A DNA stretch of 64,000 nt, taken from an uncultured Gemmatimonadaceae bacterium. GTDB taxonomy: Bacteria > Gemmatimonadota > Gemmatimonadetes > Gemmatimonadales > Gemmatimonadaceae. The notes below the pieces were generated by a model that made no database searches, was not told where the DNA came from, and saw only the letters and a list, made by a program, of their open reading frames with translations. Each line of letters starts with the position of its first letter. Within the stretch, counting starts at the first letter, position 1. Of this stretch, positions 1-63,715 are shown in pieces. The stretch lies in contig CAWHHI010000013.1 of the NCBI GenBank assembly GCA_963829055.1, forward strand, positions 1-64,000, read 5' to 3'. A program made the position numbers and the translations under genes.

Positions 1-1581
1 GTGCGTCGAGGACACGAGCTCGTCGTGCGCACGGCGCTCGGCGCCGGCGTGGCGCGGCTCCGCCGACTGCTGCTCGTCGAGAATCTGATACTGACGCTCA
101 CCGGGGCCGCATTCGGTGTGCTGATCGCTCTGGGCGGCGTCAGGCTGCTGGTGTCGCTCGCCGCCCGCTATTCCCCTCGCGCGAACGAGATCCGTCTCAA
201 TGCCACGGTCTTCGGCTTCACGCTGTCGCTGTCGGTGGTGATCGCGCTGCTGCTGTCGTTCGTGGCGTCGCTGCCACGCGAAGGGAGCATCGCGGCGCTC
301 ATTTCCGCCGGCGTACACCGCCTAACGGGTGGCGTGAGGAAGCAGCGTCTCCAGCGCGGACTGGTCGTGGCGCAGATCGCGGTGTCCGTGGTGCTGCTGG
401 CGGGCGCGGGACTGCTCACGCGCACGATGATTCAGCTGTCGGAGGTGGACACTGGCCTCAAGGCTGAGGAAGTGCTGGCGGTGGAGGTGCCGCTCCTCAC
501 GCTGAGCGGCGGCCCGAGCAACGGCGATCAGGCCGGTTGGTACCGAAGCATTCTGGAATCCGACGCTGTGGCCAAGGCGAAGTACGAGCGCATGCGGCGC
601 GAGATCCGCGCCCTGCCCGGCGTCAACGAAGTCGGAGTCGGTTCCACGATTCCGCTCCGACGCGCATCGATGAACTTCGAAGTGAAGGCGGAGGGCAAGC
701 CGCTCGCGGTTGGTGAGGCGGTGCTGCGTCCCGAAGGTCGAACGGCCAACCCGGAGTACTTCCGCGCGGCGGGGATTCCGCTGCTCGAGGGACGCGAGTT
801 CTCCAGCACCGATGCACCTCGCTCGGGGTTGGTCGTGATCGTCAACAAGACGCTCGCCGATCGGATCTTTCCTGGCGAGAACCCGATCGGGAAGCGGATC
901 GCGTGGACGGGCGAGCTCCTCAAACTGAGCCCGATCAGCGGCGACTGGCGTACGATCGTCGGTGTCGTCGGCAATACGCAGGACGGTGGGCCGGATGCTG
1001 CGCCGAGACCCGTGGTGTTCATGCCGATGACGCAGATGTTGTCGCTCAGTGGCGTGCTGGTCATCCGCGCGGACAGCAACGTGGCGGGACTGGCGAGCGC
1101 GGCGACGCGCATCGTGCAGCGCATCGCGCCCACGGCACCCATCGAGCAGGTGCTGACCATCGCGCAGATCAAGGACCAGGGCGTGGCGCCGCGCCGTCTG
1201 AACGCGGTGCTCATCTCGTCGTTCGGTATCCTGGCGGTGATCATCGCCGCGGTGGGGATCGCCGGTGTGCTCGCCTTCTCGGTGAGCGCGCGCACGAACG
1301 AGATCGGCATTCGCATGAGCCTCGGCGCCGACCGCGGTCGTGTGCAGCGGATGATCCTGCGGGAAGGTGGCGTCCTGCTGGTGATCGGGCTCGCGTTAGG
1401 TGTCGTCGGCGCGTTCGTGGCCTCGGGCGCGATGCGCGGGCTGCTCTTCGGCGTCGCGCCACACGACCCGACCACGTTCACGGGCGTTGCCCTGCTGATG
1501 GCGGTGATCGGGATCGTCGCGTGCTGGATTCCGGCGCTGCGTGCGGCGCGGATCGATCCGGCGATCACCATGCGCACGTAG
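1..1581 (+). CDS. ADOP-type (MacB/FtsX-like duplicated) ABC transporter permease, 5'-truncated by the window edge
   Basis: FtsX-like motifs RxxELVVRTALGAG, LVVAQIAVSVVLLAGAGLL, VSARTNEIGIRMSLGA and RAARIDPA; close paralog of 46673-49117. Confidence 0.9.
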   Translation: MRRGHELVVRTALGAGVARLRRLLLVENLILTLTGAAFGVLIALGGVRLLVSLAARYSPRANEIRLNATVFGFTLSLSVVIALLLSFVASLPREGSIAALISAGVHRLTGGVRKQRLQRGLVVAQIAVSVVLLAGAGLLTRTMIQLSEVDTGLKAEEVLAVEVPLLTLSGGPSNGDQAGWYRSILESDAVAKAKYERMRREIRALPGVNEVGVGSTIPLRRASMNFEVKAEGKPLAVGEAVLRPEGRTANPEYFRAAGIPLLEGREFSSTDAPRSGLVVIVNKTLADRIFPGENPIGKRIAWTGELLKLSPISGDWRTIVGVVGNTQDGGPDAAPRPVVFMPMTQMLSLSGVLVIRADSNVAGLASAATRIVQRIAPTAPIEQVLTIAQIKDQGVAPRRLNAVLISSFGILAVIIAAVGIAGVLAFSVSARTNEIGIRMSLGADRGRVQRMILREGGVLLVIGLALGVVGAFVASGAMRGLLFGVAPHDPTTFTGVALLMAVIGIVACWIPALRAARIDPAITMRT

Positions 1582-1594
1582 GAGGCTGATTCCC

Positions 1595-2481
1595 ATGGGA
1601 ATGACGTATGTGGTGCACATCCTCGCCGGTACTCTGGGCCTGATTGCCGGCTATGTCGCGCTCTACTCGGCGAAGGGGGCGGCGCTCCACCGCAAGAGTG
1701 GAATGGTGTTCGTGTATGCAATGCTCTTCATGGCCGTTTTCGGAATGACGATCGCCGTCGTAGCGCGACAAGGCGCCGGACATCAACGTCCCCGCAGGAA
1801 TGATCACGTCGTACCTGGTGATCACGGCGCTGACAACAGTGCGACCCCCTGGTGCGGTGTCGCGGGGTTGGCGCTGGTTGGACATCGGCGCAATGCTCGT
1901 CGCGTTGGTAGTGGGTCGTGATCATGCTGGCGTTCGCCACCGAAGCCATCGCCAACGGGGGCAAGAGGAACGGGATGCCGGCGTTTCCATTCATCCTGTT
2001 CGCCACGTTCGGGTTCGTCGGCGTTGCCGGCGATCTCCGCGTGCTACGGTCGGGCGCGCGCCAGGGGGCGTCGCGGATTGCACGCCATCTGTGGCGCATG
2101 TCGATCGCTCTTTTCATAGCGGCGCTGTCGTTTTCCGTTCAGCTGCCGAAGTTCCTCCCGAAGCCGCTGCGTATCCGCGGGCTCCTCATCCTTCCGGTGG
2201 TGGCAGTGCTGGTAACGATGGTCTACTGGCTGTGGCGCATCGGGATCCGGCGGTCCGTCCGGGGCCTCGTTCACGTCACCGCACGGCGCCACGGCCATGA
2301 CATTCCGCAGGGGCTCGCCGTTGCTGCGGATTCCCGGGTTGCTCCCGAGCACATGATCCGCGCAGCCACGGGAACGAATGACCCGTACAACGAGCGCGCG
2401 AATCGCCGGCTTCACGCTCCTCTTCTATATCGCGGTCGGGATCGCTCGAATGATCGTGGCCAGGGGCGCCACGAGCGGTGA
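1595..2481 (+). CDS. Membrane protein, DUF2306-like (frameshifted; 3' end uncertain)
   Basis: VHILAGTLGLIAGYVALYSAKGAALHRKSG and RIARHLWRM motifs spread over ORFs 1541-1921, 1800-2300 and 1918-2481; multiple hydrophobic helices. Confidence 0.6.
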
Positions 2482-3100
2482 GGGGACTGCCGCGAGGCTG
2501 GCGAGCATCGCGACGCACACGGTACAGCTGCGCATCAACGTCGTGCTCACACTGGTCATCTGCCTCACAGCACTGACGCTCGCGGTAGCGCTGTACGTGA
2601 TCACGCGGGATGACGACCAGGAGCTCGCGCTCCTGGCCCTCGCCTGTCGCGCCATCGAGGGCGCGATTCCGGTGATTTCCATACTCGCGACGCTCGGATT
2701 GCTGTCGCTCGCCACAGCTGCGGCAGCGGATGCGCCTAACGCTGCGGCATCGTATCCGCTTGCCGCATTCCTGCTGAACGTGAAAGGATGGCTGCCGCTC
2801 ATTGGGGCGACATTCTTCGCTGTGGGTAGCGCGCTCTTCTCGTGGCTCCTTCTTCGCGGTCGCATCGTCCCCGCCTCCCTGGCCTGGCTCGGCGTCGCCG
2901 CTTCCGTCCTGCTCGTCTTGGGCCTTCCCCTGCAACTGGTGGGAGGGCTCCGTGGCACGGTCACGCAGCTCATGTGGATACCGATGGCCGCGTTCGAAAT
3001 CCCGCTCGGTTTCTGGCTGCTCATCAAGGGTGTCCGTGAGCCCACGGCGCACGTGTCGGTTACCGAGACGAGGCAAACATGGACACAGCGCACGGGATGA
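2378..3100 (+). CDS. DUF4386-like multi-pass membrane protein
   Basis: SARIAGFTLLFYI start, C-terminal FEIPLGFWLLIKG, about 6 TM segments. Confidence 0.75.
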   Translation: MTRTTSARIAGFTLLFYIAVGIARMIVARGATSGEGTAARLASIATHTVQLRINVVLTLVICLTALTLAVALYVITRDDDQELALLALACRAIEGAIPVISILATLGLLSLATAAAADAPNAAASYPLAAFLLNVKGWLPLIGATFFAVGSALFSWLLLRGRIVPASLAWLGVAASVLLVLGLPLQLVGGLRGTVTQLMWIPMAAFEIPLGFWLLIKGVREPTAHVSVTETRQTWTQRTG

Positions 3101-3112
3101 CTCGCGCGCACG

Positions 3113-3385: not shown

Positions 3386-3528
3386 AGCGCGGCACGTCCG
3401 GGCTTCGGGCGCCTAACGCCCAGTGACCTGGACGCCCTCCTTCTCCTCTCGCTCGGCTCGAGTTTAGCTTGCGTGTCGGACGCGATTCAGCGCCCGCGAC
3501 GGCTCGCATCGAGAGAAATCGAGAGGAG

Positions 3529-5064
3529 ATGATGGCGACACGGCAGGGCATCGACGACACGCAGCGCGCACCCGACAAGATCGGCCCCGACGACCCGCGG
3601 TATCGCGCCGTGGTCGACAAGCGGTTCAACAAGCGGTTCAGCGCGACGCCGGACTACGTGCGACTCGTGAGCTCGACCGAACAGGTCGTGTCGGCCGTCG
3701 AAGACGCGGTGAAGGAAGGGCGACGTCTCGTCGTCACCAGCGGCGGGCACTGCCTCGAGGGGTTCGTCGCGGACCCGGACGTGCGCGTGATCATCAATGT
3801 CTCGCCCATGAAGCGCATTTACTACGATGCCCGACGCGGTGCGATCGCCGTCGAGGCCGGCGCCACAGTGGGCGACGCGTTCCGCGTGCTGTACGACCGG
3901 TGGGGCGTGGTGATCCCCCTCGGCGAGTATCCGGCGATCGGCATGGGTGGGCATGTCGTGGGTGGTGCCTTCGGCTTTCTGTGTCGTCAGCTCGGTCTCG
4001 CGGCGGATTACCTGTACGCCGTCGAGGTGGTCACCGTCGATGCCAGCGGACGGGCGAACAGCGTCGTCGCAACGCGCGACGCGTCGGACCCGAACCGCGA
4101 GCTCTGGTGGGCGCACACCGGCGGTGGCGGTGGAAATTTCGGCGTCGTCACCCGCTACTGGTTCCGCTCGCCTAACGCATCCGGCGGCGACCCCGCTCAG
4201 CTCCTGCCACGCGCGCCCGAGTCGATCACGACGTTCAAGGCGGAATGGAGCTGGAGCGACATCGACGAGCCGACGTTTCTCCGACTCCTCAGGAACCACG
4301 GAACGTGGTGCGAGCGGAACAGCGACGCGGATTCACCGAACGCGTCGCTCTGGACGCTGCTGCAGATTCATCGGAAGCAGTTCGGGAAGATCATCGTCCG
4401 CGGTGTGAGCACGGCGGGAGCCGACGCGGAGCGCCAGGTGGACGACCACCTTGCGGCGTTAGGCGCTGGCATCGGAGCGCCGACGGGTAAGGAGATCACG
4501 CGGATGTCATGGCTCGAGTTCGCCCTGAACCCGCTTCCCGATCTGTTCGCCGGTCCGCCAGGCGGGGTGAGCGCAAAGGTCAAGGACGCGTTGCTCAGGA
4601 GACGCTTCACCGACCGCCAGATCGCCGTCGCGTACGACTACATGACGCGCACCGATCATGACGTCATGGGTGGCATGCTGGGTCTCGCGACGTATGGCGG
4701 CCGGATCAATACGGTGGCGCCCGACGCGACGGCCTCCGCGCAGCGCGGTGCCATTCTCGATATCGCCTGCAATGTCGGGTGGCTGGATCCGCGTGAAGAG
4801 GCGAAGAATCTGGCCTGGGTGCGGGCGTTCTATCGCGACCTGTTCGCGGAGACCGGCGGCGTGCCAGTCCCGGGCGAGGCATACGATGGCGCGTTCATCA
4901 ATCATCCGGACACTGACCTCGCGGACCCGGCACTGAATACGTCGGGCGTGCCCTGGCACACGCTGTATTACCGAGACAACTACCCGCGACTGCAGCGAAT
5001 CAAGGCGCAGTGGGATCCTCGGAATGTGTTCCGGCATCGATTGTCGATTCAGGCACCCGGCTGA
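3529..5064 (+). CDS. FAD-linked oxidoreductase, berberine-bridge-enzyme (BBE/VAO) family
   Basis: SGGHCLEG FAD-His motif, GGGGGNFGVVT, C-terminal YYRDNYPRLQRIKAQWDPRNVF. Confidence 0.9.
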   Translation: MMATRQGIDDTQRAPDKIGPDDPRYRAVVDKRFNKRFSATPDYVRLVSSTEQVVSAVEDAVKEGRRLVVTSGGHCLEGFVADPDVRVIINVSPMKRIYYDARRGAIAVEAGATVGDAFRVLYDRWGVVIPLGEYPAIGMGGHVVGGAFGFLCRQLGLAADYLYAVEVVTVDASGRANSVVATRDASDPNRELWWAHTGGGGGNFGVVTRYWFRSPNASGGDPAQLLPRAPESITTFKAEWSWSDIDEPTFLRLLRNHGTWCERNSDADSPNASLWTLLQIHRKQFGKIIVRGVSTAGADAERQVDDHLAALGAGIGAPTGKEITRMSWLEFALNPLPDLFAGPPGGVSAKVKDALLRRRFTDRQIAVAYDYMTRTDHDVMGGMLGLATYGGRINTVAPDATASAQRGAILDIACNVGWLDPREEAKNLAWVRAFYRDLFAETGGVPVPGEAYDGAFINHPDTDLADPALNTSGVPWHTLYYRDNYPRLQRIKAQWDPRNVFRHRLSIQAPG

Positions 5065-5205: not shown

Positions 5206-8200
5206 ATGCGCCATTCCGCTTCGCTGATCGTCGCGATCGTTACTGCCGTCTGTATCCTCGCCGCGTCGTCCGACGCCGTCGCCCAGTCACCGCTTCGCCC
5301 GACCGCGGAGCCCAAGCTCGCGTTCGCTGAACCGGGAATCGCGCCTGACGGCAGCGAGATCGCGTTCGTACATGGCGGCGACATCTGGGTGGTGCCGGCA
5401 CGCGGCGGCGAGGCGCGACTGCTCGTGGCCAACCCGGCGAACGAGTCACGTCCCATCTACTCGCCAGACGGAACTCGGCTCGCGTTCATCTCGAACCGCG
5501 CCGGAAGCCCGGACATCTGGATCCTGACGCTCGCCGACGGATCGCTTCGCCGTCTCACCTTCGACGACGGCGCGGAGCAGCTCGACAGCTGGTCGCGCGA
5601 TGGCAGGTGGGTCTACTACTCGAGCGCTGCGCACGACATCGCCGGCATGAGCGACGTCTACCGCGTCCGCAGCGAAGGCGGCACGCCGATGCCCGTCGCC
5701 GCCGACCGGTACGCGGCCGAGTTCATGGCGGCGCCCGCGCCTAACGGCGACGCCGTCGCCATTGTGGGGCGTGGCTTCGGGCTCTCGCAATGGTGGCGTA
5801 AGGGCCGCTCGCATCTCGACGAGAGCGAGCTCTGGGTCGTCCGTGGCAACGGGTCAGCAGCACCGAAATACGAGCAGCTCACGCAGCGCGGCGCGAAGCA
5901 GCAGTGGCCTATGTGGGGCAGCGGGAGCGGGGACGCAGGCTCGCTCTACTTCGTCTCCGACCGATCCGGCCCGCAAAATCTCTGGGTAAAGCCGGCCCAG
6001 GGCGAGGCGCGAGCGCTCACCGAGTTCGGCAGCGGGCGCGTGATGTGGCCGACGATGACCGCGAACGGAAGCACCATCGCGTTCGAGCGGGATTTCGGCA
6101 TCTGGACGTACGACATTGCGAGCCGGCGCACGCAACAGGTGCCGATCACCGTGCGCGGCTCGGCGGTCGCCGGAGGCACCGAGCATCTCACACTCACCAC
6201 GGGCTTCAGTGACCTCGCCGTCTCGCCCGACGGGAAGAAGCTCGCGTTCATCGCTCGCGGCGAAGTGTTCGCGGCCCCGTCCGCCGACGGCGGCGACGCG
6301 ACCCGCCTAACGACGACATCGGCCGCCGAGGGACAGGTGACGTGGGCGCCGGACAGCCGTCGGCTCGCGTACACGGCCAACCGCGACGGCGCGTGGAACC
6401 TCTATCTCTACGATTTCGCGACGAACAAGGAAACGCCGCTCACGACCGGTCGTGTGCACAGCGTGTCACCGCAGTTCTCACCCGACGGAAAGCAGGTGGC
6501 GTTCCTCCGCGACGCGCGTGAGCTCTGCGTGGTATCGCTCGACACGAAGCAGGTGCGCGTACTCGCGAAAGGCGTGTTCGGACGACCGCCATTCTTCCTC
6601 GATCGTCCGATCGCGTGGTCGCCAGATAGCCGCTGGGTCGCGTATCTCTCGGGCGGGACGAAGCTGTTCATGAACGCGTACGTCGTGCCGACCACGGGCG
6701 GCGACGCGCGTCAGGTGAGCTGGCTCGCGAACACGCGCGCGACGAGCCTGTCGTGGAGCAAGGATGGCGAGTTCCTGCTGCTCGACACGGGAATGCGCAC
6801 GGAACCAGGCTCGCTCGCGCGCGTCGATCTGCTGCCGTTCTCGCCGAAGTTCCGCGAGGACCAGTTCACGGCGATGTTCCGTGACGAGACGCCGGGTCGC
6901 ACGACGCCGCCAGCGCCCACGCCGGCACGTCCGGCCACCGACTCGACGAAGCCCGATTCGTCAACCACGAAGCGCGCCGATCGCGCGGACGCCGTGCGGA
7001 TCGTGTTCGACGGCATCAGGACGCGACTCAGCATGGTTCCGGTCGGCGTCGATGTCGGCGTCCAGGCGCTGAGCGCCGACGGAAAGCAGGTCGTCGTCAC
7101 GTCGAACGTCGCGGGGCAGACGAACCTGTTCGCGTATGCGTTCGACGAGTTCGCGACGGACCCCGCGGTGACCCGACAGATCACGACCACGCCGGGGAAC
7201 AAGAACTCCATCCAGTTCGCGCCCGACGGAAAGAGCGTCTGGTTCCTCGAGCAGGGGCGGATCGTCAATGTCACGCTCGAGAACAGGGCCGTCAGGCAGG
7301 TTGCGGTCCGCGCGGAGGTGGACGTCGACTTCGCGCGCGAGAAGTGGGACGTGTTTCACCAGGCGTGGGAATTCCTGAACGACAATTTCTACGACCCGGA
7401 GTTCCACGGCACCGACTGGGGCGCGGTTCACACCGCGTACGCGCCGTACATCGCCGGCTCCAAGACGCCTGACGAGATGCGGCGCGTGCTGAGTCTGATG
7501 ATCGGCGAGATGAACGGATCGCACATGGGAATCTCCGCGCCGCCGCCGGCCGGTGCGCCAACGGCAGCGACCGGACGCCTTGGCCTCGAGTTCGACCGCG
7601 GCATCTACGAGCAGCGCGGACAGTTGCGCGTGACGACCGTGATACCTAACGCCGCGGCGGCGTTGAGCGAGGGCGTGCGCGTCGGCGACTACGTGCTCGC
7701 CATAGACGGGACGCCGATCGCGCCTAACGTGTCGCTCGACTCGATCCTGCGGCTTCAAGGTCGGCAAACGCGTCGCGCTGCGCGTCTCGGCCGACCCGAA
7801 CGGCGCCAACGCCCGGGAGGTCGCGATCCGGCCACGCAGCGCCGCGTTCGAGAAGCAGATGCTGTATCGCGCGTGGTTCGAAGAGCGGCGCGCACTCGTC
7901 GCGAAGCTCAGTAACGGCCGACTCGGCTACGTGCACATGCTCGACATGGGCAACAACGCGCTGACACAGCTCAACCTCGATCTCGACGCCGAGATGCACG
8001 AGAAGGACGCGGTCGTCTTCGACGTGCGCAACAACAACGGCGGCTTCATGAACGGCCATGCGCTCGACGTGTTGTCGCGGAAGCCGTATGTGGACATGGT
8101 GCGTCGCGGCGTACCGTCGGCTCCCGGACGGCCGGTCCTTGGTCAGCGCTCGCTCGAAAAGCCGACGATTCTCATTACCAACCAGGCCACGCTCTCCGAC

Positions 8201-39484: not shown

Positions 39485-39503
39485 CGTCCACGCCGAGGAG
39501 GCA

Positions 39504-49726: not shown

Positions 49727-49903
49727 GTGCTCCTCCAACTTCAGGGTGTCTCGATTGCTTCGGATCAAGAGCACGCAATCTGACCGTGCTCACCACGAGC
49801 TTCAAGCTGAGCCACACAGATGGTAGCGCCTAACGTGCTGTGAGCGCGTGATGCCTCCTTCACATCGAGGTACAGCTACGATGACGCTGTCGCGCGGCTC
49901 GAC

Positions 49904-52400: not shown

Positions 52401-55106
52401 GTGGCCTGGTACCATGAGATCCTGACGGCGTTCGACGCACTCACGCGACGCGGACGCGCGAAGAGCGTCGCATGGACGATGAGATGCAATTTCACCTGGA
52501 CATGGAGGCTCGTCGACTGATGAGCGAACACGGCATGTCGGAAGACGAGGCGCGTCAGGCAGCGAAGCGCGCGTTCGGCGGCGTCGAGCGTCACAAGGAC
52601 GCCGTGCGCGACGAGCGCGGAACGTCGTGGCTCGAAGAACTGGCGCAGGATGCGCGCTTCGGACTGCGCACGCTGAGCCGTCGACCCGGCTTCACCACCG
52701 TCGCGTCGCTCACGCTCGCGCTCGGAATCGGCGCGAGCACCGCGCTCTTCGGTGTCGTGAAGGCCGTGCTTCTCACGCCACTACCGTATAGTCGTCCCGA
52801 AGGCATCGCCGTGCTCTGGAGCGCCTGGAAGGGGTTCGACCAGACGTGGCTCTCCTACGACGAGTACGAGGGGTGGAAGTCCGACATTCCGGCATTCGCG
52901 AACGTCGGGATCTTCAGCGACGGCGCCGTGAACCTCACGGAGAACGGCGAGTCCGACCGACTGCGCGCCGGGTTCATCGACCGCGACATCCTCCCGATTC
53001 TCGGCGTGACGCCGGCGTTAGGTCGCGGATTCACGGCCGAGGAGGATATTCCGAACGGGCCTAACGTCGTGATCATCGGGAACGACGTCTGGCAGCGACG
53101 GTTCGGGGCGGATCCGTCAGTGGTCGGCCGATCCATTCAGATCAACGGGCAGGCGAGCGCTCGTCGTGGGCGTGATGCCGGCGGGGTTCAGGCTTCCGCT
53201 CGACTTCGGCGCCGACGGGGCGACGCAGGTCTGGATCCCGTTAGGCACGGACGCCGCGAACAACGGGGCCGTGCCCGGACCGGCCTTCGCCAAGGGCGGT
53301 TCGAGTCACGGCTACTACGGCCTCGCGCGACTGCGGGCCGGCGCGACCATCGAGCAGGCGAACAAGCAGCTCGCCGATCGCGTCGCACGCCTCGTCGCGG
53401 AGGGTGACTATCCGAAGGAGCAGGAATTCCGCGCGTTCGCCGTCGGCGTCGAGGAACAGGTTGCCGGGCGGCTCAAGCCGGTGCTGCTCGTGGTGTTCGC
53501 GGCGGTCGGGTTCGTGCTGCTCATCGCCTGTGCCAACGTCGCGGGGCTGCTGCTCGTGCGCGGCGAGCAGCGACGACGCGAAATGGCGCTGCGGGTCGCG
53601 CTCGGAGCCGGCAGCCGGCGGATCTCGCGGCAACTGCTCACCGAGACGGTCGTCCTTGCCGGGCTGGGTGGAACGCTAGGCGTGCTGTTGGCGGCCGGCG
53701 GCGTCTGGCTCCTCCGGAACACGGCGCCGGCGTCGTTGCCGCGCGTCGCCGAGACGCGACTCGATCCGGTCGTGCTGGGATTCGCGTTAGGTATCGCGGT
53801 CATCGCGGCGCTGATCGCCGGGCTCCTGCCGGCGCTGCAGGCGACGTCCGTCACGCCGCAGACCGAGCTGAGAGAAGGCGGACGCTCGGCCACCGCCGGA
53901 CCCGGCCGACTCCGTTGGCGTCAGACGCTCGTGGCGGCCGAGGTCGCGCTCGCGGTGGTGCTCGTGATGGGCGCTGGGCTGATGATCCGCAGCGTGTCGA
54001 ACCTGTTCGCGATCGACGCGGGCATTCGTCCCGAAGGCGTGTTGACGATGCGTCTGTCGACGCCGGCCGCGTGGTATCCGGATTCGTTGCGCGTCGGCGC
54101 ATTCCACGACGAGCTGCGACGGCGCGTCGCGGCGTTGCCGGGCGTGAAGGCGGTGGGCCTCGTGCGGATTCTGCCGCTCGCGACGGAGGCTGGGCGATTG
54201 GGGGTTGCAGGTCGAGGGCTACACGCCGCCGCCTAACCAGGGGACGCCGGCCGACTGGCAGGTCGTGACACCCGGCTACTTCGAGGCGATGGGCATCCAC
54301 CTCGTGCAGGGTCGCTTCTTCGACGAGCGCGACCGCATGGACGCGCCACTCGCGATGATCATCAACCGCCGATTCGTGGAGCTGTATCTCCAGGGCCGTC
54401 CGCCACTCGGCGCGCAGGTCGCGCATTGGCGGCGGCAACGCGACCGGGCCGAAGTACACGGTCGTGGGCGTCGTGGACAACGTGAAGCACAACGGCCTGA
54501 CGCGCGAGGTGAAAGCCCAGTTCTACGCGCCGCAGCCGCAGTTCGCGACGAATCCGGGCAACACCAGTCGCACCATGACGCTCGTCGTCAGAGGCAACGT
54601 CGACCCGAAGCAGCTCATCAACCCGGTGCGGTCCGTCGTGAAGGAGCTCGACCCGCGACTTCCGATCTCGGACGTGCGCTCGATGAACGAGGTCGTGGAG
54701 CAACGCGATCGCTGCACCTCGCTTCGCGATGCAGCTCCTCGGCCTGTTCGGGGTGCTCGCGCTCGTGCTGTCGGCGATCGGGATCTTCGGGATCGTGTCG
54801 CAGGTCGTTGCGTCACGCACCCAGGAGTTCGGCATTCGCGCCGCGCTGGGCGCGACGCCGAGGAATCTGCTGATACTGAGCCTCGGCAGCGGCGTGCGTC
54901 AGGCGGGCGCGGGCCTCGTCGTTGGCGTCGCGGCGGCGCTCGTGCTCACGCGCACGATGACGTCGATGCTGCAGGGCGTGACGGCGACGGATCCGGTGAC
55001 GTTCGTGACGGTGGTGGTGGTGACCGCGGTGGTGGCGGTCGGCGCGAGCATGATCCCGGCGCGCCGCGCAGCGAAGACCGACCTGGCAAAAGTAATGACA
55101 GGCTGA
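52401..55106 (+). CDS. ADOP-type ABC transporter permease with N-terminal prefix domain (several frameshifts)
   Basis: DDEMQFHLDME, TLALGIGASTALF, IACANVAGL, RTQEFGIRAALGA. Confidence 0.9.
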
Positions 55107-55468: not shown

Positions 55469-55954
55469 TTGCCTAACGCCTACAACCCCGCCGCCACCGC
55501 GGTCACCGCGGACGCGTTGCTCGACCACTGGCAGGGCCACCGCCGCCTGACGCGGCGCATGATCGAAGCGTTCCCCGATGACAAGCTGTTCACGTATTCG
55601 CTCGGCGGAATGCGCACGTTCGGCGAGCTCGCGCTCGAGATGCTCACGATGGGCGCGCCGATGGTGCGTGGGACGGTGACGAACAAGTGGGATTCGTCGA
55701 TGGACCGCTCGCCACGTGCGCGCGCCGAGCTGCTGAAGCAGTGGGACGAGGCGACGGAGCAGATCAACGCGCTGTGGAAGCAGATTCCGCCCGAGCGCTT
55801 TCACGAGACGATCAAGGCGTTCGGTCAGTATGAAGGCCGCGTGTCGGATCTACTGCTCTACGTCATCGACAACGAGATTCATCATCGCGGGCAGGGGTAC
55901 GTATACCTTCGAACCCTCGGGATCGACCCGCCACCGTTTTACGAGCGGCAATAG
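55469..55954 (+). CDS. DinB family protein
   Basis: GGAG RBS with TTG start; HWQGHRRLTRR, GGMRTF, YVIDNEIHHRGQGYVYLR. Confidence 0.9.
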   Translation: MPNAYNPAATAVTADALLDHWQGHRRLTRRMIEAFPDDKLFTYSLGGMRTFGELALEMLTMGAPMVRGTVTNKWDSSMDRSPRARAELLKQWDEATEQINALWKQIPPERFHETIKAFGQYEGRVSDLLLYVIDNEIHHRGQGYVYLRTLGIDPPPFYERQ

Positions 55955-56213: not shown

Positions 56214-58645
56214 TCAGCCGTCAGCTCGCAGCGCAATCACTGGATCGATCCGCGTAGTCGATCGTGCCGGGATGATGGTCGCGATCGCCGCGATCCCGAG
56301 CAGCAGCACAGCCACGACGGCCAGCGTTAGGCCGTCGGTTGGGCTGACCTCGTAGAGCATCGCTACGAGGAGTCGGTTGCCGAGTGCCGCACCGACCAAT
56401 CCGAGCGACGGCCCCAGAGGCCGCGATGACGAGGCCGCGACGCATGACCATGCCTTGCAGGTTCTGCGACGTCGCGCCGAGCGCCATGCGGATCCCGAGC
56501 TCCCGCGTGCGCTGACGCACCATCGTCGTCATCACGCCAAGTAACCCAACCGCGGCCAGCGCGACCGCCGCAATCGCGAACACCGCCAGCAGGATCGCGT
56601 TGAGGCGCGGCAGCGCGCGCGGCCCCTCGAGCAGCGTCTCGAACGGCGCGGCACTCGCCACCGCTACGCGCGGATCGACCTCGCGTACGGCTCGGCGAAT
56701 CGCCGGGATGAGATCGGCCGGACGGCCGGCCGCGCGAATCACGAGCGTCGTTGGCGCAACGGGATACGCCGTTTGGCGAAGCGGGAAGTAGAGCGTCCTG
56801 CGCGGGTCCCGAAGATCCCGGTAGCGCGTCTCCGGGACGACGCCCACGATCGTGATCAGGCTGTCGCCCTCACCGGACTTGAGACGCTTGCCGATCGGAT
56901 CCGCGTTAGGCCAGTAGTATCGCGCCGCCGACTCGCTGATGAGCGCGACGCGCGGCGCACCCTCGCGATCCGCGTCCGTGAAGCTCCGCCCGCGCAAGAC
57001 CCGAATGCCGAACGTCGAGAAATAGTCGGGCGTCACCGGCTCGAAGATCAACGTGGGATTCTTCGCCGCCTCGTCAGCTGTCTGCCCCTCGGCCGCGATC
57101 TGCCCGAACACTCCGCCGACGGCAACGAACGGGGGCGTGAGCACCGGGGTCACCGCGCGCACGCCCGGAACGGCGGCGAGACGCGGAACCAGCACGTTGA
57201 CCAGGGCGAGCTGCCGCAGGGTTGTCCGAGAAGACCTCGCCGGGAGTTGCCAGCTCGGCAATCAGGAGATTCGCTGGGTTCATCGCGAGCTCGACGCGCT
57301 CGAGCTTCAAGAAGCTGCGCGTGATGATACCCGCGGCGGACAGCACGAGCAGCGCGAGCGCGACCTGTCCAACGACGAGCGCCTCGGTCCCGAGACGGAA
57401 CCGCCGGCTCGCGGTTGCCTGACGCGAGCCCGAGCGCAGCACGTCCTGCAACTCGACGCGCGACGTCACGAGCGCCGGCGCCAACGCGAACAACAGCGTC
57501 ACGACACCCGCGATCACGATGGCCCCACCGACGACGGTGGCGTTGAGGTGAATCTCGCCGATCCGCGGCGTGCCAACGGGCGCAAAGTGGACGAACGCGC
57601 GCACGGCTCCAATCGCGAATACGACGCCCACGGCCGCGCCAACGACCCCGAGCAGCGCGCTCTCGGTGACGAGTTGGCCGACGATCCGTGCCCGCCCTGC
57701 CCCGAGCGCCGACCGCACCGCGATTTCCCTCGTGCGGGCGAGCCCGCGGACGAGCAGCAGGTTGGCGACGTTGATGCACGTGATCAGCAACAACAATCCA
57801 GCGGCTGCCGCGAACGCGATCACCGCCGGCTTCACGTCGCCGACGATGGCGTTCGTCAGCGAGTGAACGACCCCGACGACATCGCGGTGCCAGCGCGGCG
57901 CACCGGGACGCGCGAAGTAGCTCGTCAGCTCGGCGCGCGCGGCAACGGCTGACGCGTTAGGCCTGAGCCGCCCAATGACATTGAGCTCCGCGTAGACGCG
58001 CTGACTATCGAGCGAAGGCGAGTTCGGAATGACCGGCGCCCAGAAGTCGACCCCCGTCGGGTAGTCCATGCCTTCGGGCATCACGCCGACGATCGACTGT
58101 GCCGCGCCCGTCCAGTGCAGCACGAGCCGCCGTCCAAGGACGCCCGGATCGCCGCCGAAGTACCGCTGCCACGCGCCATAGCTCAGCACCGCCACCGGCG
58201 CCGCGCCTTTGACATCGTCCTCGGGTCGGAGCGCTCGGCCGAGCACCGGCTTCACGCCGAGTAGGTCGAAGTAGCCTCCGGTGACAAGTGACCGGTGGAG
58301 ACGATACACGTTGCCACCGTCACGGATGGGCACGAGCTGCGCGCCACCGTAGGCGAAGAACTCGATGCGCTCCAGCGATTGCGTGCGCGCCGCGAACGCA
58401 TGGGCATCGTCGAGCAGGAGCGGAAAGTTGTCGAAGCGGCCATCCCGCGTGGCGCCCCACAGCACCACTACACGATCCTGGTCCCGGATCGGCAGCGGGC
58501 GCAGCAGAAACGCTTCGGCCACTGTGAACACGGCCGTCGACAGGCCGATCCCTAACGCGAGTGTGAGAATCGCGGTGGCCGAGAAGCCGGGGGTCCGACG
58601 AAGGCTCCGGACGCCGAGGCGTGCGTTCTGCAGGACGCTCATCAT
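56214..58645 (-). CDS. ADOP-type ABC transporter permease (frameshifts near 57220 and 56400)
   Basis: TLALGIGLSTAVF, ITCINVANL, RTRELGIRMALGA, IDPVIALR. Confidence 0.9.
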
Positions 58646-59501
58646 TGACTCTTCTCCGCGACACTCTGTGAACCGAGCTGTTTCGCGAGATCGTCTACAC
58701 GGGCCAGCAAGCGTGGTTCACCTAATTTCTCCGCGACCGCGGGAAACGATGGGGTCGCACCGGTCCAGCGGAGCTCGCTCGACGTCGGTGAACAGTGGCG
58801 CGTCCGTCCGCAGGGTCGCGAGCGTCTTGAAGAGCAGCGCGATCTCGCGATTCGGTCCGAGTACGTCAGGCGGAAACGCCTCGATGGTCCCGTAGCGATT
58901 GACGAGGCTCGCCGCCGTCTTCGTCCCGATGCCAGCGATGCCAGGATAGCCGTCCGCCGTGTCGCCGACGAGCGCGAGATAATCCGGGATGTGCTCCGGG
59001 GCGACGCCGTACTTGGTCTTGATGACGTCCGCGTTGCGCACCTGGCCGCTGCGTCGGTCCACCTGCACGACGCGGTCGCCGACGACGCACTGCGCGAGAT
59101 CCTTGTCTGGCGTCCGAGATGCTCACCTTCTCGACGCGCGGGTCGAGCGCCGCGAGGTGCGCGGCGGACGCGAGGCCGTCGTCCGCCTCGAGCTCGACCA
59201 TGGGCCAGACAGCGACGCCCATGGATGCGAGCATCTCCTCGAGTGGATGGAACTGCGCGTGCAGTGCGGGCTCGATCCCCTCGCCCGTCTTGTAGCCGTC
59301 GTAGAGTGCGTTACGGAACGACTCGATCACGTGATCGGTGGCCACGCCAATGTGGGTCGCGCCCCCCTCGAGCATCTGGACGACCGTGCGCAGCACGCCC
59401 AGCGCCGCGCCTAACGGCGGGTCGACCGCCTGTTTCGCGCGACGGAGTCCGTAGAAGTGGCGGAACAGTTCATAGGTCCCATCGATCAGGTGGACGATCA
59501 T
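58642..59501 (-). CDS. Stand-alone 5'-3' exonuclease / flap endonuclease (PolI N-terminal-like; frameshifted)
   Basis: HLIDGTYELFR, SFRN..Y.GYK, EADD, DYLALVGDTADGYPGIAGIGTKTA (H3TH). Confidence 0.9.
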
Positions 59502-60852
59502 TCAGCCTCGGGCGAGCAGCGCATCGATGTGCTCTCTGGTCTTCGGGTAGACGTCGGTTCGTGCGCCTGCGTCGATCAATGCCCTGATGACCGCGGGGTA
59601 GTCGACGCCGTCCACGGGTCCGTTGTAGGCATACCACAAGGTGCCTGTCAGCACGGTGCCTCCGTAACTGTTCAGCGTCTCCAATTGTGCGCCGCGCGCC
59701 AACAGGAGATTGACAATATCCATGTGTCCGTGGGCGGCCGCAAAGTGGAGCGCGGTCGCGTCCACATCCCTCGACGCCGGGTTGACGCCCTTCTCGAGCA
59801 TGAGCTTGACGACGTCGGCGCGGCCGAACGTGGCAGCCTTCGTCATCGCGTACTCCAGATGCACCTGCGGATCCCGGGGCAGCCTCGGCCAACGAACCGT
59901 GGTCAACGGCGCGTCCGGCTTCAGGTGGCCGTCGTCACCGACCAGCGACGCGACGATATCGAGCCGACCTAACGCGGCGGCCGAGATGATGTTGTCGACG
60001 CGCGCACCGCGTCGGACGAGTGCTTCCGCTGCGTCCGGGTAGTGGAACGCGATCGCCGTCATCACCGGCGAGCCGTTGTCTTCCACGCCGTTGACCGCGG
60101 CGCCATGGTCCACGAGCACGTCGACGAGCGCGACCTGCACACCGGCGAGCTTCGGGTGCACGCTCGAGACGAGCATGTCCATCGTCGTGGCGTCGCCACC
60201 GTACATGTGCGCGAGGGCGTCGGCTTCTGCTCCCGCATCGAGCAGCGCACGCGCAATCTCCACGGCGTTCGTCGGCGTTTTCTGTCGATAGCCTTCGTGC
60301 CCGTTCGCGGCGGTGTAGTGGAGTAGCGTCGCGCGATGGTCTCGTGCAGACCGTGCGCGGACCAGCGCTGGATTTGCGCGCAGCATCGAGGTCAGCGCGG
60401 TGAGGTCGCCGGTGACGACCGCGTCGGCGGCCGCTTCGAACTCGGAGTCCGGCGAGCTCGCGGCTGCGAGCGCCTCGACGTGCTGCGCGAACTTCGGCCA
60501 GCTCGCAAAGTCGTGCAATCGCGCGAGAAAGAGTTGCGCGTCGCTGAGCGTACAGGACGCTCCGGCACCGTCGTCCGTCAACAAGCGGCTGGCCCGCGCG
60601 TCGCGTATGATGTCTTCGACTTCGCGTTCGACCTGCGACCAGCGGAGGTGCCTCACATGGACGGCGGCGTCGGCACTCGATTCGTCGCCGTCGTGGAGGG
60701 CCGCGAGTGCCTCGAGCCACTGCCTGGCCCAGGTACGTACCGCGGCTTCGCCTGACGTGCACGCCTTGGCGAGACTCTTCGCGCGGTTGCGGTACTGCTC
60801 AATGTTCGGACGCGGCGGGAAGCGGGATCGCGTCGGTGCCACGGGGTTCCAT
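59502..60852 (-). CDS. Ankyrin-repeat protein with N-terminal LPARPNIEQ..AK / AQ..LAR..F.SW domain (one extra base near 60815)
   Basis: AAGGAG RBS then ATG 60852 MEPRGTDAIPLPA(R)PNIEQYRNRAK; ankyrin motifs TLLHYTA, TALHFAAAHGHMDIVNLLL. Confidence 0.85.
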
Positions 60853-61238: not shown

Positions 61239-62427
61239 CGCGCTTCTCGCCGCGTGCAGCCATGCGCCCCGCCCCGCCGCCGTGCCCGAGGTCGCGCCAC
61301 CGCGCATCGTCGGGTACCTGGCGTCGTGGGGCGTTCGCTCCAAGGGGACGAAGATCGCCGATCTGCCCGGGAACGAGCTGACGCACATCATCTACGCGTT
61401 CGCGCGCGTGACCGAGGACGGGCGCCTGGCGTTAGGCGACCCGTGCCTCGACATCGGACAGTGCGACTCCACCGCCGCGCCACCGGCGAAAGACGGCGGC
61501 AACTTCGCCGAGCTCCGGCGTCTCAAGGACCGCTATCCGCGCCTCAAGCTGCTCGTCGCGGCCGGCGGCTGGTCGGGCTCCGGGCGGTTCTCCGACGTCG
61601 CACTCACTCCGGAATCGCGCCAGAAGTTCGCGCAGTCGGCTGTCGATGTGATCATCCGTCGATCGCCGGGCCTGTTCGACGGCATCGACATCGACTGGGA
61701 GTATCCCGTTCGCGGCGGCCTCGCGACCAACGTTACGCGCCCGGAGGACCGGCAGAACTGTACGCTGCTGCTTCAGGCGTTGCGGCAGGAGTTGGACGCG
61801 CAGGGCAAGCGAGACGGCCGTCAGTACCTGTTGACCATCGCAACCATTGCCGGCCCCGGCGTGTTCACGCAACTCGAGCTCGGGCCCGTCGCCGCGGCGG
61901 TCGACTGGTTCAACGTCATGACGTACGACTTCCACTCCGGCTCGAAGATCGCGCACTTCAACGCGCCGCTCTACACGGCCACAGGCGATCCCACACCTGG
62001 CTACACAGTCGACTCGACCATGCGTCGCTACATTGCCGGCGGCGTGAGCCCGTCGAAGCTCGTGGTCGGCGTTCCATTCTACGGCCGTGTATACGGCGGC
62101 ATCGGCGCGGCGAACGACGGGTTGTTCCAGCCAGTGACGGGGCCGGTGCCGAACGAGTGGAAGACCGGCACGGACTACAAGGCGATCGTTCGGCGCGACC
62201 CGGAGTCACTCGGCTTCCGCCGCGTTATGCACCCAGAGGCGCGCGTGCCGTTCCTCTACAACGCGACGACGGGTACGTGGATCACGTACGACGACGCGGA
62301 GTCGGTGGCCGAGAAGGCGGCTTACGTGCGCACGCACGGGCTTGGCGGCGTGATGGCGTGGGAGATCGGCGGCGACGACGGAACGCTGCTGCGAACGATG
62401 TACGAGGAGCTGCGGGCGAAACCGTAG
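61198..62427 (+). CDS. GH18 chitinase-like lipoprotein
   Basis: LAAC lipobox, THIIYAFA, AAGGW, catalytic FDGIDIDWEYP, NVMTYDF, GVPFYGR, GGVMAWE. Confidence 0.95.
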   Translation: MTALRRFAAALGVTALLAACSHAPRPAAVPEVAPPRIVGYLASWGVRSKGTKIADLPGNELTHIIYAFARVTEDGRLALGDPCLDIGQCDSTAAPPAKDGGNFAELRRLKDRYPRLKLLVAAGGWSGSGRFSDVALTPESRQKFAQSAVDVIIRRSPGLFDGIDIDWEYPVRGGLATNVTRPEDRQNCTLLLQALRQELDAQGKRDGRQYLLTIATIAGPGVFTQLELGPVAAAVDWFNVMTYDFHSGSKIAHFNAPLYTATGDPTPGYTVDSTMRRYIAGGVSPSKLVVGVPFYGRVYGGIGAANDGLFQPVTGPVPNEWKTGTDYKAIVRRDPESLGFRRVMHPEARVPFLYNATTGTWITYDDAESVAEKAAYVRTHGLGGVMAWEIGGDDGTLLRTMYEELRAKP

Positions 62428-62456
62428 TGTCATCCCGAGCGTCAGCGAGGGATCTG
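62428..62456. repeat. Half REP family B
   Basis: TGTCATCCCGAGCGTCAGCGAGGGATCT immediately after the chitinase stop. Confidence 0.8.
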
Positions 62457-62502
62457 CTGTGAAGGTCCTGTCGCCCGTCCGGCGCCGTGGACTGAGTCGA
62501 AC

Positions 62503-62852
62503 GCGCAATTCCAACAGCGACGCAGAATTCGCAGGCGCGCTGGGAGCGCGCAACGCAGAAGGACGCAGAAAACTGCAACACCCCTAACGGGACAAGCTCC
62601 GTTCCGCCAAGGCCGTGAAGAAAGGGGGACTGCCTCGGGACGCATTGGCCACGCCCGAGGCCGTGTGTCATCCCGAGCGCCAGCGAGGGACCTTCTCGAA
62701 CGTCATCGTGGCACTTCTCGCCACGAGTACTTCACAGAAGGTCCCTCGTCGCTGCCGCTCCTCGGGATGACAGCATTGCAGTTTTCTGCGTCCCTCTGCG
62801 CTGCGGCCGCGGAGCGGCCGCCTGCGAATTCTGCGTCGCTGTTGGACCGCGC
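62503..62852. mobile_element. MITE-like element family C, copy 2, containing a nested REP family B (62666-62772)
   Basis: TIRs match 28285-28558; internal CCGTGAAGA.AGGGG..C.GCCTCGGG also shared. Confidence 0.65.
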
Positions 62853-62872
62853 GATATTGCCGGCTGGAAGCG

Positions 62873-63715
62873 TTAGGCATGACTTCGGACACCAGCGACG
62901 GCCGCTAAGGCACCCGGATCCAGCGCGACGGCCGTCATCACCGGCAGCGCGAAGTCGAGCAATCCCCGAGCACTCAACAGGTAGCTCGAGGCATTCCCGA
63001 CGAGCCCACCATCATTGCCGGTGGCCCGCAGATACGCATCGACAACGTCCGCGAAGAATCGCTCCGACCAGTTCGCGTGCACGCCGGCACTCGCTGTGTC
63101 GAACTCCTCCACCTCCCGCCACACGCGCTCGCCGTTCTCGAGCCATGGCACCTTGAACCGCGCCACGCGCTTGCCCGGAAAGTCCCCGATGTGCTCCGCG
63201 TAATGGAGGAACGTCACCGTGTCGTGATCGGAGCCGAGCATCAGGATCTTGCCGTCGAGCGCGACGAAGCGCTCGAGCAACGAGCCGCGGCCGAATGCGT
63301 AGTTCCACGGCTGATGTGACATCAGATAGTCGGCATGCGTGCCCCAGACGACGAACCGCACCACGTGTGGGTTCACGCGCGACCCCGGGTACGTGCGCAG
63401 CAGCTCCACCAACGCACCGTTGTCGCGACTCGAGCGCGCCGTGTACGGGTCGAACGGCGGCAGCTTCTCCTCGAGCTCCGCCTCCTGCTCCGGCGTCAGC
63501 TCCCCGCGGCCGATCTCGTCGACGTACGCGGGACAGCTCGCATACATGATGAGCGCACCGTCCTCGCTCACGACATCCTTGATGGCGAGATGAACCTCAT
63601 CCGGTCCGCCCGCCACCTCGCCAATGGCGCGCAACGATGCGTGGACCATCACCACGTCGCCGCGCGTGAGGCCGAGTGCGCGAAGGTCGGCGGCGAGTTG
63701 CTGTCGGGAATGCAT
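62873..63715 (-). CDS. Aminoglycoside N(3)-acetyltransferase family protein (Antibiotic_NAT)
   Basis: DLRALGLTRGDVVMVHASLRAIG, LPPFDP.TARS, GKILMLG....TVTFLHYAEH. Confidence 0.9.
   Translation of the reverse strand: MHSRQQLAADLRALGLTRGDVVMVHASLRAIGEVAGGPDEVHLAIKDVVSEDGALIMYASCPAYVDEIGRGELTPEQEAELEEKLPPFDPYTARSSRDNGALVELLRTYPGSRVNPHVVRFVVWGTHADYLMSHQPWNYAFGRGSLLERFVALDGKILMLGSDHDTVTFLHYAEHIGDFPGKRVARFKVPWLENGERVWREVEEFDTASAGVHANWSERFFADVVDAYLRATGNDGGLVGNASSYLLSARGLLDFALPVMTAVALDPGALAAVAGVRSHA

Follow-up and report, generated by a model that had tools for sequence, protein, structure and literature searches.

CCTAACG, a word iterated about once per kb in some Gemmatimonadaceae genomes, as a possible DNA-uptake-type self tag

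Uptake sequences, as characterised by Findlay and Redfield 2009 (PMC2817400) and Mora et al. 2020 (PMC7811141), are abundant and evenly spaced, occur in two orientations, arise by substitution, favour certain reading frames, enrich the peptides they encode and are absent from foreign DNA; for Haemophilus, DNA that had reached the periplasm has been recovered and sequenced (PMC7811141). According to the consulted parts of the respective papers, the highly iterated palindrome HIP1 is an octamer of genes and spacers whose function was long unknown and which varies between lineages (PMC5861425, PMC4390886); it is hyper-abundant, with sites conserved between species (PMC5861425), and has now been linked to transformation and proposed as an uptake signal (PMC13756078). 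Here we describe the non-palindromic word CCTAACG (reverse complement CGTTAGG) in the genome of an uncultured Gemmatimonadaceae bacterium, labelled G000. The window, that is the whole stretch analysed, consists of the first 64 kb of contig C13, in which an original prediction had pointed to this heptamer as a candidate uptake, methylation or architectural signal.

By exact count the window contains 67 copies, of which 38 lie on the + and 29 on the - strand, the number and coordinates originally predicted. Dinucleotide-preserving shuffles of the window (n=100) contained 2.95 copies on average and 7 at most, and 67 was reached in 0/100. With a window GC of 0.668, the expectation of about 7 copies for independent bases was also right, and 48 of the 67 copies extend to the eight-letter form GCCTAACG. 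The earlier observation was confirmed in every detail.

The G000 assembly comprises 7,784,024 bases in 20 contigs (66.7% G+C, 86% complete). CCTAACG occurs in it 6391 times (0.82 per kb), with densities of 0.64-1.09 per kb on all 20 contigs. On both strands together GCCTAACG occurs 5004 times, against 131, 102 and 257 copies expected under Markov models of order 1, 2 and 3, and it was the most over-represented 8-mer under all three, the outcome of a k-mer check that had been suggested at the outset. These orders were used in place of the maximal order because maximal-order z-scores are uninformative when the sub-words are almost wholly made of the word itself; 6391 of the 8933 CTAA tetramers of the genome sit within it.

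The gene calls used here were home-made. Indels fragment them, their coverage amounts to 72% of the genome, and stop-codon counts taken from them are rough. Within these predicted genes lie 4042 copies, 1956 in sense and 2086 in antisense orientation. After shuffling of synonymous codons within each gene (n=10), which keeps protein sequence and codon usage, the means were 231 sense and 99 antisense copies, 331 in total, and a whole-codon shuffle gave 114 and 60, so that the excess survives the codon and dipeptide effects that might have produced it. The synonymous shuffle is unfit for judging a depletion of one-letter neighbours, as this null redistributes the rare codons of the word to other contexts. 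P-N before a codon starting with G was written CCT-AAC in 1188 of 1938 cases, and before A, C and T in 81/487, 26/617 and 16/298; L-G sites that follow a codon ending in CG numbered 4318, of which 1564 were written TTA-GG, a spelling nearly never used elsewhere. The claim that the word appears in every frame held for all four non-stop frames (1178, 767, 1561 and 516 copies in genes; 10 and 4 in the stop frames). On the same indel-fragmented calls, and therefore roughly, 248 of 757 TAA and 206 of 1577 TAG stops lie inside a copy. The encoded peptides PN[VADEG] and [SPTA]LG were 1.65 and 1.27 times as frequent as their reversed forms. When DNA was sorted by local codon periodicity, the word was found at 1.1-1.2x in non-coding-like and at 0.91-0.95x in coding-like DNA. 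The excess is caused at the DNA level, and not by codon usage.

Strand totals in G000 were 3154 + and 3237 -. Counts over 50-kb windows were 526/570 where GC skew exceeded 0.01 and 839/814 where it was below -0.01; the replication-polarity test gave a Spearman rho of -0.17, and the correlation with gene orientation a rho of -0.03. The signal is thus unpolarised, as had been proposed, with no tie to GC skew or gene strand. Position -1 was biased (G, 78%), and further out codon periodicity alone was seen. Since no conserved flank exists beyond position -1, a repetitive extragenic palindrome (REP) or miniature inverted-repeat transposable element (MITE) is ruled out as the identity of the word. 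Neighbouring copies formed all four orientation pairs in equal numbers and avoided each other: the pair correlation rose from 0.28 for distances under 100 bp through 0.49 (100-200 bp) and 0.77 (200-300 bp) to about 0.9 (up to 500 bp), and was 1 farther out, which defines an exclusion zone of 200-300 bp; no periodicity was detected within 4 kb. In G014, from another genus, a sample of 99 kb displayed the same mutual avoidance, with a coefficient of variation of the gaps of 0.80; the genome-wide value of 1.05 in G000 is inflated by foreign segments, described below. The exclusion zone argues for a benefit per region, as in fragment uptake, or for a footprint, and against site-by-site repair.

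The copies of the window are listed here. Entries with no gene called rest on the home-made gene calls, and their number is an upper bound; retention in genus-mates is given only for copies within aligned orthologous stretches.

321..327, +, GCCTAACG: CGC CTA ACG = R-L-T, sense, gene 1-1578(+)
1394..1400, -, CCTAACG: GCG TTA GGT = A-L-G in gene 1-1578(+)
2735..2741, +, GCCTAACG: CCT AAC GCT = P-N-A, gene 2378-3097(+)
3412..3418, +, GCCTAACG: no gene called
4171..4177, +, GCCTAACG: CCT AAC GCA = P-N-A, gene 3469-5061(+); retained in 1/3 aligned genus-mates
4457..4463, -, GCCTAACG: GCG TTA GGC = A-L-G; retained in 3/3 aligned genus-mates
5740..5746, +, GCCTAACG: CCT AAC GGC = P-N-G, tricorn-type protease; retained in 4/4 genus-mates; P-S/T/D-G in word-free orthologues
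6306..6312, +, GCCTAACG: CGC CTA ACG = R-L-T; G000 only; orthologues ATC ACG (I-T)
7645..7651, +, CCTAACG: CCT AAC GCC = P-N-A; G000 only; orthologues CCC/CCG AAC/AAT (synonymous)
7723..7729, +, GCCTAACG: CCT AAC GTG = P-N-V; retained in 4/4 genus-mates; word-free orthologues CGT/CGC GAC ATG (R-D-M)
10090..10096, +, CCTAACG: CAC CTA ACG = H-L-T, kinase gene 9827-11761(+); G000 only
11039..11045, +, CCTAACG: CCT AAC GAC = P-N-D; retained in 3/4 genus-mates
11579..11585, +, GCCTAACG: CCT AAC GAC = P-N-D; retained in 4/4 genus-mates
12096..12102, +, GCCTAACG: CCT AAC GGG = P-N-G; G000 only; orthologues CCG GAC/GAT = P-D
12354..12360, +, GCCTAACG: CCT AAC GGC = P-N-G; retained in 3/4 genus-mates
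12887..12893, +, GCCTAACG: no gene called
13880..13886, -, GCCTAACG: no gene called
15491..15497, -, GCCTAACG: TCG TTA GGC = S-L-G in gene 13897-16110(+)
16006..16012, +, CCTAACG: CCT AAC GCC = P-N-A
16109..16115, +, CCTAACG: at the end of gene 13897-16110(+)
17586..17592, -, GCCTAACG: CCT AAC GGT = P-N-G, sense, gene 17110-18045(-)
17967..17973, -, GCCTAACG: CCT AAC GTC = P-N-V, frame of 17110-18045(-)
19326..19332, +, GCCTAACG: CCG TTA GGC = P-L-G in gene(-); two metagenome runs (X1, X2) have C for T at 19328
21254..21260, +, GCCTAACG: CCT AAC GAA = P-N-E
23854..23860, +, CCTAACG: CAC CTA ACG = H-L-T
24217..24223, +, GCCTAACG: no gene called
24444..24450, -, GCCTAACG: GCG TTA GGC = A-L-G
26577..26583, -, GCCTAACG: TAG (26580-26582) = stop of racemase gene 25716-26582(+)
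27457..27463, +, GCCTAACG: TAA (27459-27461) = stop of gene 27021-27461(+)
28092..28098, -, GCCTAACG: CCT AAC GAT = P-N-D, sense, gene(-)
28975..28981, -, GCCTAACG: GGC CTA ACG = G-L-T, sense, gene(-)
31450..31456, +, GCCTAACG: CCT AAC GAC = P-N-D
32220..32226, +, GCCTAACG: no gene called
32982..32988, +, CCTAACG: CTC GTT AGG = L-V-R in gene(-)
34128..34134, -, GCCTAACG: GGC CTA ACG = G-L-T
34727..34733, -, CCTAACG: no gene called
34989..34995, -, CCTAACG: no gene called
35592..35598, -, GCCTAACG: no gene called
35717..35723, -, CCTAACG: no gene called
36984..36990, +, GCCTAACG: no gene called
39480..39486, +, CCTAACG: GAC CTA ACG = D-L-T
40284..40290, -, GCCTAACG: no gene called
42124..42130, -, CCTAACG: GCG TTA GGA = A-L-G
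43085..43091, -, GCCTAACG: no gene called
44553..44559, -, GCCTAACG: TCG TTA GGC = S-L-G, TonB receptor gene
45200..45206, +, GCCTAACG: CCT AAC GCG = P-N-A
45684..45690, -, GCCTAACG: ACG TTA GGC = T-L-G
47691..47697, -, GCCTAACG: ACG TTA GGC = T-L-G, permease gene 46673-49114(+)
48662..48668, +, CCTAACG: CCT AAC GAC = P-N-D
48992..48998, +, GCCTAACG: CCT AAC GAT = P-N-D, within GVTPNDP; paralogue at 1450-1470 has GVAPHDP, without the word
49829..49835, +, GCCTAACG: no gene called
50897..50903, +, GCCTAACG: CGC GTT AGG = R-V-R in gene(-)
51081..51087, +, GCCTAACG: CCG TTA GGC = P-L-G in gene(-)
53016..53022, -, CCTAACG: no gene called
53060..53066, +, GCCTAACG: no gene called; 44 bases from the copy at 53016, the smallest gap in the window
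53239..53245, -, GCCTAACG: CCG TTA GGC = P-L-G
53785..53791, -, CCTAACG: GCG TTA GGT = A-L-G
55472..55478, +, GCCTAACG: CCT AAC GCC = P-N-A
56325..56331, -, GCCTAACG: no gene called
56904..56910, -, GCCTAACG: no gene called
57955..57961, -, GCCTAACG: CCT AAC GCG = P-N-A, sense, gene(-)
58551..58557, +, CCTAACG: GCG TTA GGG = A-L-G in gene(-)
59410..59416, +, GCCTAACG: no gene called
59968..59974, +, CCTAACG: GCG TTA GGT = A-L-G in gene(-)
61430..61436, -, GCCTAACG: GCG TTA GGC = A-L-G, GH18 gene
62583..62589, +, CCTAACG: no gene called
62871..62877, -, GCCTAACG: no gene called

Two details given in the original prediction were found as described: the copies at 26577 and 27457 supply the stop codons that end two genes (TAG at 26580-26582 and TAA at 27459-27461), and two permease paralogues differ at the word, GVAPHDP (1450-1470) lacking it and GVTPNDP (48983-49003) carrying it. 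Alignments of orthologues revealed that in the tricorn-type protease the copies were made by substitution, not by insertion. The R-D-M of word-free orthologues is P-N-V in G000 at site 7723, P-S/T/D-G is P-N-G at site 5740 and the I-T of the orthologues is L-T at site 6306, while at site 7645 the change is synonymous only. The tricorn-protease loci compared had no synteny past the gene itself. Across four orthologous stretches of the window (73-81% identity), 26 of 54 site-by-genome comparisons retained the word, against 12-20% of all aligned 7-mers, and in 20 comparisons, at seven positions, it was present in the relative only; since the genomes are kin, these comparisons are not independent. 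Conservation of the word thus goes together with turnover. In rpoB, nine copies were found in G014, three in G000 and two in G004, and none in 11 other genomes; three sites are common to G000 and G014. Seven of the nine motif columns fall on fully conserved A/P-L-G, L-T or P-N-V, where word-free genomes use CTC/CTG/CCG, and in the other two G014 has the replacements V-K/S to V-R and P-D/E/S to P-N. The word has been written by point substitution into genes and spacers that already existed, and is maintained there despite codon preference and, at some sites, at the expense of the amino acids of the ancestor.

Could a long-read assembly have generated the word through errors of sequencing, base-calling or polishing? 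The single-base indels by which the window departs from other data, together with several split genes, do suggest that the 20 contigs of G000 come from an error-prone long-read assembly. However, six genus-mates assembled in 260-1170 contigs each contain 0.35-0.68 of the 8-mers per kb, and MEGAHIT-named contigs of relatives also carry the word, which is therefore not confined to one assembly but abundant in related genomes built from short reads. Logan contigs from 4 runs of 4 studies match positions 10000-19999 of the window, and among the best-supported 40 of 285 differences a single one fell within a copy (19328 T>C). Metagenome runs containing at least half of the words sampled from the stretch numbered 14. 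Foreign segments of the same assembly, which serve as an internal control, have no copy at all, and no single neighbour word could supply 5000 copies. As the word is present both in short-read assemblies and in independent metagenome contigs, the artefact explanation has practically no chance of being right, and is already refuted. Several genes of the window are split (tricorn-type protease, molybdopterin-binding dehydrogenase subunit and amidohydrolase, at 7859-7914, 17972-18045 and 22713-22801), and contigs of other runs are one base short at 11750, 13266, 15715, 16807 and 18044, the last being the dehydrogenase split. These splits are likely to be indel errors of the long-read assembly and not real pseudogenes.

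Depletion in acquired DNA, one of the checks proposed at the outset, was observed within G000 itself. Three contig-end segments of 31-50 kb and 0.66-0.73 G+C (C6:5440-55038, C6:591808-623330 and C11:0-44055) are free of the word. Two of them, C6:5440-55038 and C11:0-44055, contain the single-copy housekeeping genes for AroC, DAHP synthase, FtsK, TrpB, peptidase M17 and FolD in a second version of 47-59% identity; the CheckM-type contamination of the genome is 3.95%. The contig-end segments are probably foreign DNA, whether chimeric joins, binned foreign DNA or large acquisitions. Further word-free stretches within contigs (C4:804932-820718, C3:422925-445047 and other gaps of 8-16 kb) have a lower G+C, 0.62-0.64, and ordinary metabolic genes, and are candidates for recently acquired islands.

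The signal proved to be genome-wide and restricted to some Gemmatimonadaceae lineages, in line with the lineage-specific DNA-level signal first proposed. Our tables include the unpublished genomes G013, G055, G056, G154, G268, G286, G313 and G426 (G013 in the 41-genome comparisons and as a row of the rpoB tree), and no conclusion is based on these alone. Among 41 relatives, all seven genomes of the genus and G014 (1.25 per kb) were rich and eight were intermediate, the remainder having 2-65 copies per genome; enrichment over word-poor relatives, in which copies number about 5-50 per genome, was 100-fold or more. In G014 both the word and its weak flanks are those of G000. A survey was then made of 401 genomes from 77 genera of the family, with approximate densities read off the table. 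In roughly 28 of the 77 genera, one genome or more reached 0.1 8-mers per kb. Genera g9 (7/7 genomes, 1.15-1.34 per kb), g65 (12/12), g72 (13/13; G209 at 1.28 per kb) and g58 (10/11) were rich, g3, g11, g12, g39 and g40 (14-15 genomes each) had next to no word, and g59 was split, with 6 genomes at 0.87-0.97 and 8 below 0.02 per kb. In g58 the one remaining genome was poor, and g16, g65 and g72 were graded in density. A quick rpoB tree of 14 rows, 7 of 21 having been dropped as wrong-frame open frames, put G000, G004 and G014 with the word-poor G008, G012 and G017 into one unresolved clade (support 96). This clade therefore does not establish the rich lineages as sisters. The on/off pattern speaks for a reader that can be dispensed with, and for copies that do mild harm after the drive has ceased.

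A one-letter variant, GCCAAACG, reached 925 copies in G010 (3.7 Mb), against at most 320 in each of the 40 other genomes. In a 200-kb sample of G010, CCTAACG occurred 6 times on the + and 25 times on the - strand of a contig with 84% of its genes on +. Small samples gave GCCTGACG 15 times in 20 kb of G036 (2 expected) and CGTAACTGA 13 times in 100 kb of G007 (0.5 expected), which may be other iterated words or dialects. Another hyper-abundant word was seen neither in 78 kb from word-free relatives nor in the 100-kb sample of G007, although these samples are too small for exclusion.

A search for proteins that might read the word covered methyltransferases, ComP and pilin-like receptors, which had been named at the outset for a check of co-occurrence. 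ComP_DUS, two orphan pilins, ComEC, the pilin N-terminal domain and the integron integrase were tried as trackers of the word, and none tracks it. Searches of G000, which is 86% complete, found neither the methyltransferase families C5, N6_N4 and N6 (PF00145, PF01555, PF02384) nor Vsr (PF03852). One D12-class (Dam-like) methyltransferase, a weak match apparently split by a frameshift, is encoded at C8:134909-135647. Its family was present in 21/21 g59 genomes searched, including 4 known rich and 7 known poor ones; occurring in rich and poor alike, the enzyme is therefore not the switch, and looks like a conserved orphan enzyme of the family. With these families and Vsr not found and the D12 enzyme non-discriminating, methylation or very-short-patch-type repair is disfavoured; of the functions originally listed, uptake fits best. 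A search aimed at RecC (PF04257) found no match in G000. On the side of transformation, G000 encodes ComEC and DprA, the PilQ secretin, a ComEA-like HHH domain and five pilin-like genes, among which is a cluster that comprises two pilA, three minor pilins, pilM and pilN; pilins are located at C12:399334-402854, C11:105384-105806 and C3:516829-517212.

We tentatively propose, at somewhat less than an even chance, that [G]CCTAACG is a DNA-uptake-type self tag, built up through biased horizontal transmission. When cells exchange DNA, some component of the process would prefer fragments that bear the word. This would most likely be a receptor of the type IV pilus, ComEA and ComEC transformation route, all encoded in the genome, and less likely a step that spares incoming DNA after entry. 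Better-matching alleles would be passed on more often, so that the word would accumulate by molecular drive until its cost to proteins balanced the drive; one copy per fragment would suffice, leading to even spacing. Lineages losing the reader would lose the word quickly, because the copies would be mildly harmful. An uptake-type tag is favoured since the signature agrees point by point with the properties listed above for uptake sequences, terminator dyads and a ComP homologue excepted, and since HIP1 itself has been proposed as an uptake signal; behind it we rank a HIP1-like internal function, a nucleoid or Chi-like site, a recombinase link and, last, an artefact. The fuller claim of a sequence-specific DNA uptake system in Gemmatimonadaceae, with [G]CCTAACG as its tag and a receptor unrelated to ComP that is switched on and off within genera, is possible, and we would sooner doubt than assert it.

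Several observations weigh against a self tag for uptake. ComEC was found in 40/41 relatives and pilins (N-terminal domain) in 41/41, in rich and poor genomes, and these genes are therefore non-discriminating. The Pfam family ComP_DUS matched 0/8 rich genomes and was above cut-off only in the word-poor G016. The orphan pilin on C11 has orthologues within the genus only and does not track the word. The one on C3 is most similar (61-78%) in G021, G020, G014 and G010, all somewhat enriched, the value being 57-59% in the word-poor G007, G008 and G012; similarity is graded with relatedness, and may reflect simple kinship. Close pairs of all kinds are depleted, with 7 opposed pairs below 30 bp genome-wide, although terminator dyads are typical of DNA uptake sequences (DUS) and uptake signal sequences (USS). 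The same word recurs in many genera with one clear variant, and an on/off split within a genus, as in g59 (6 versus 8), has not been reported for DUS or USS. The identity of the word with the core of integron attC sites, discussed below, is not explained by uptake. Finally, our literature searches on uptake sequences, competence and natural transformation yielded nothing relevant for Gemmatimonadota. Wider searches yielded work on Neisseriaceae, Pasteurellaceae, cyanobacteria and Chi only, and look-ups of terms in k-mer surveys met with neither the word nor the group; the original remark that the signal was not recognised as a described one agrees with this, no description having been found in the literature searched.

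An alternative is that CCTAACG is a HIP1-like chromosomal word with no role in uptake, maintained by selection or by a bias of repair or gene conversion within the cell, and read by a lineage-specific DNA-binding, recombination or modification protein. Its hyper-abundance and the conservation of its sites between species recall what the consulted part of PMC5861425 reports for HIP1, genes and spacers alike carry it, and a conserved orphan D12-class methyltransferase exists. We nevertheless regard this explanation as unlikely: CCTAACG is not palindromic, the methyltransferase families and Vsr named above were not found in G000, the D12 enzyme is shared by rich and poor g59 genomes, site-by-site conversion would not yield an exclusion zone of 200-300 bp, and HIP1 has itself been linked to transformation in the accessible part of PMC13756078. 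The exclusion zone and even spacing would in turn suit a site for a nucleoid-organising protein, or a Chi-like site by which a self-marking nuclease is attenuated, selected for about one copy per kb; equal use of both orientations, such as would serve both ends of linear DNA, and the lack of the word in foreign DNA would suit it too. Against such a site stand the absence of the replication polarity of Chi, KOPS (FtsK-orienting polar sequences) and AIMS (architecture-imparting sequences), the failure to find RecC in G000, and an enrichment of at least 100-fold which, with the repeated amino-acid replacements, lies far beyond known Chi. Nor would core chromosome architecture be expected to switch off inside one genus, and we consider this possibility quite improbable.

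The last alternative ties the word to integrons or to another tyrosine-recombinase activity. The word has the letters of what we take to be the conserved attC core R''/R' (GCCTAAC / GTTAGGC; consensus RYYYAAC / GTTRRRY). In the word-poor genomes G025, G027 and G029 of a sister family, the word matches are attC sites beginning with GCCTAACG, arranged in one-way cassette arrays.

G027:C95:1-30000, G025:C3, G027:C43, G027:C80, G029:C113; one-way; integron cassette arrays of the word-poor sister family, with an attC every 500-650 bp, start GCCTAACGGATCGCGCTTAAGCTGCGGCGC

G000 has an integron integrase as well (C20:208041-208958, - strand, just above the family cut-off). Beside its gene, intI, lie about 6-7 attC-like sites (C20:200710-207188, within C20:199870-208958), all on +, starting with [G/A]CCTAACGC, and this array also has attC sites that start with GCCTAACG. 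In the 41-genome comparison, though, the integrase was above cut-off in 24/41 genomes, rich and poor alike, and below it in the rich G014, G002 and G004; as intI does not co-vary with word density, the integron integrase is not the driver. The f2 genomes with such arrays are word-poor genome-wide, the bulk of the copies have no attC-like flanks or inverted partner, and copies arose by substitution inside conserved genes. Recombinase activity as the driver is therefore very improbable and largely refuted. For a self tag with the letters of the attC core, the reader could be related to, or compete with, proteins that bind that core.

A second repeat family was noticed in the window. Its core is GG.TGTCATTCCGAGCGGAG, which recurs about 685 times across the genome, between genes and in clusters whose direct and inverted copies are 100-150 bp apart; in the window it is found at 12711-12850, 16910-17075, 25186-25308, 35302-35485, 41056-41205 and 61070. 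At these sites metagenome contigs reach depths of hundreds to thousands. This repeat resembles a REP or MITE.

To our knowledge, uptake sequences occur in two proteobacterial families of animal hosts, where they shape gene exchange. Were the proposal correct, CCTAACG would be the first sequence-specific uptake tag outside Proteobacteria, apart from the recent proposal for HIP1, and the same signature in a major uncultured soil family would suggest that selective exchange of own-kind DNA takes place in soil too. In these genomes the word would offer a simple marker, useful in binning, in the detection of chimeric contigs and in the dating of foreign DNA, and the natural on/off contrast within g59 (6 rich, 8 poor) makes the long-open question of the reader directly testable. 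Even if uptake is not involved, the rewriting of thousands of codons, hundreds of stops and conserved amino acids amounts to a strong, undescribed force on genome evolution.

As far as the available parts of the sources describe them, DUS and USS resemble CCTAACG in being short non-palindromic words present about once per kb, in equal orientations, more evenly than random and in genes and spacers; they also share the origin by substitution, a frame bias tied to codon cost, peptide enrichment, absence from foreign DNA and perhaps, going by the single case of G010, the existence of lineage variants. They belong to Neisseriaceae and Pasteurellaceae, respectively, whereas the present word is found in the phylum Gemmatimonadota, has 7-8 letters and no flanking signal, nearly lacks terminator dyads, comes without a ComP homologue in the 8 rich genomes searched, and has a patchy distribution with on/off splits inside genera. 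With HIP1 (GCGATCGC), in the same parts of the sources, it has in common the hyper-abundance of an octamer whose sites are shared between species, which occupies genes as well as spacers and which varies between lineages; HIP1, however, is palindromic and read by two orphan methyltransferases, while CCTAACG is non-palindromic and was not matched to any methyltransferase in the families searched. HIP1 shows a periodicity of 10-90 kb. Integron attC sites contain the identical letters GCCTAAC / GTTAGGC, but are imperfect palindromes of 60-140 bp in one-way arrays beside intI, of which only a handful exist here, at C20:200710-207188. Chi, KOPS and AIMS are, like CCTAACG, over-represented short words, and are read by DNA-processing machines; they are replication-polarised and few-fold enriched, whereas CCTAACG is unpolarised and enriched at least 100-fold over word-poor relatives.

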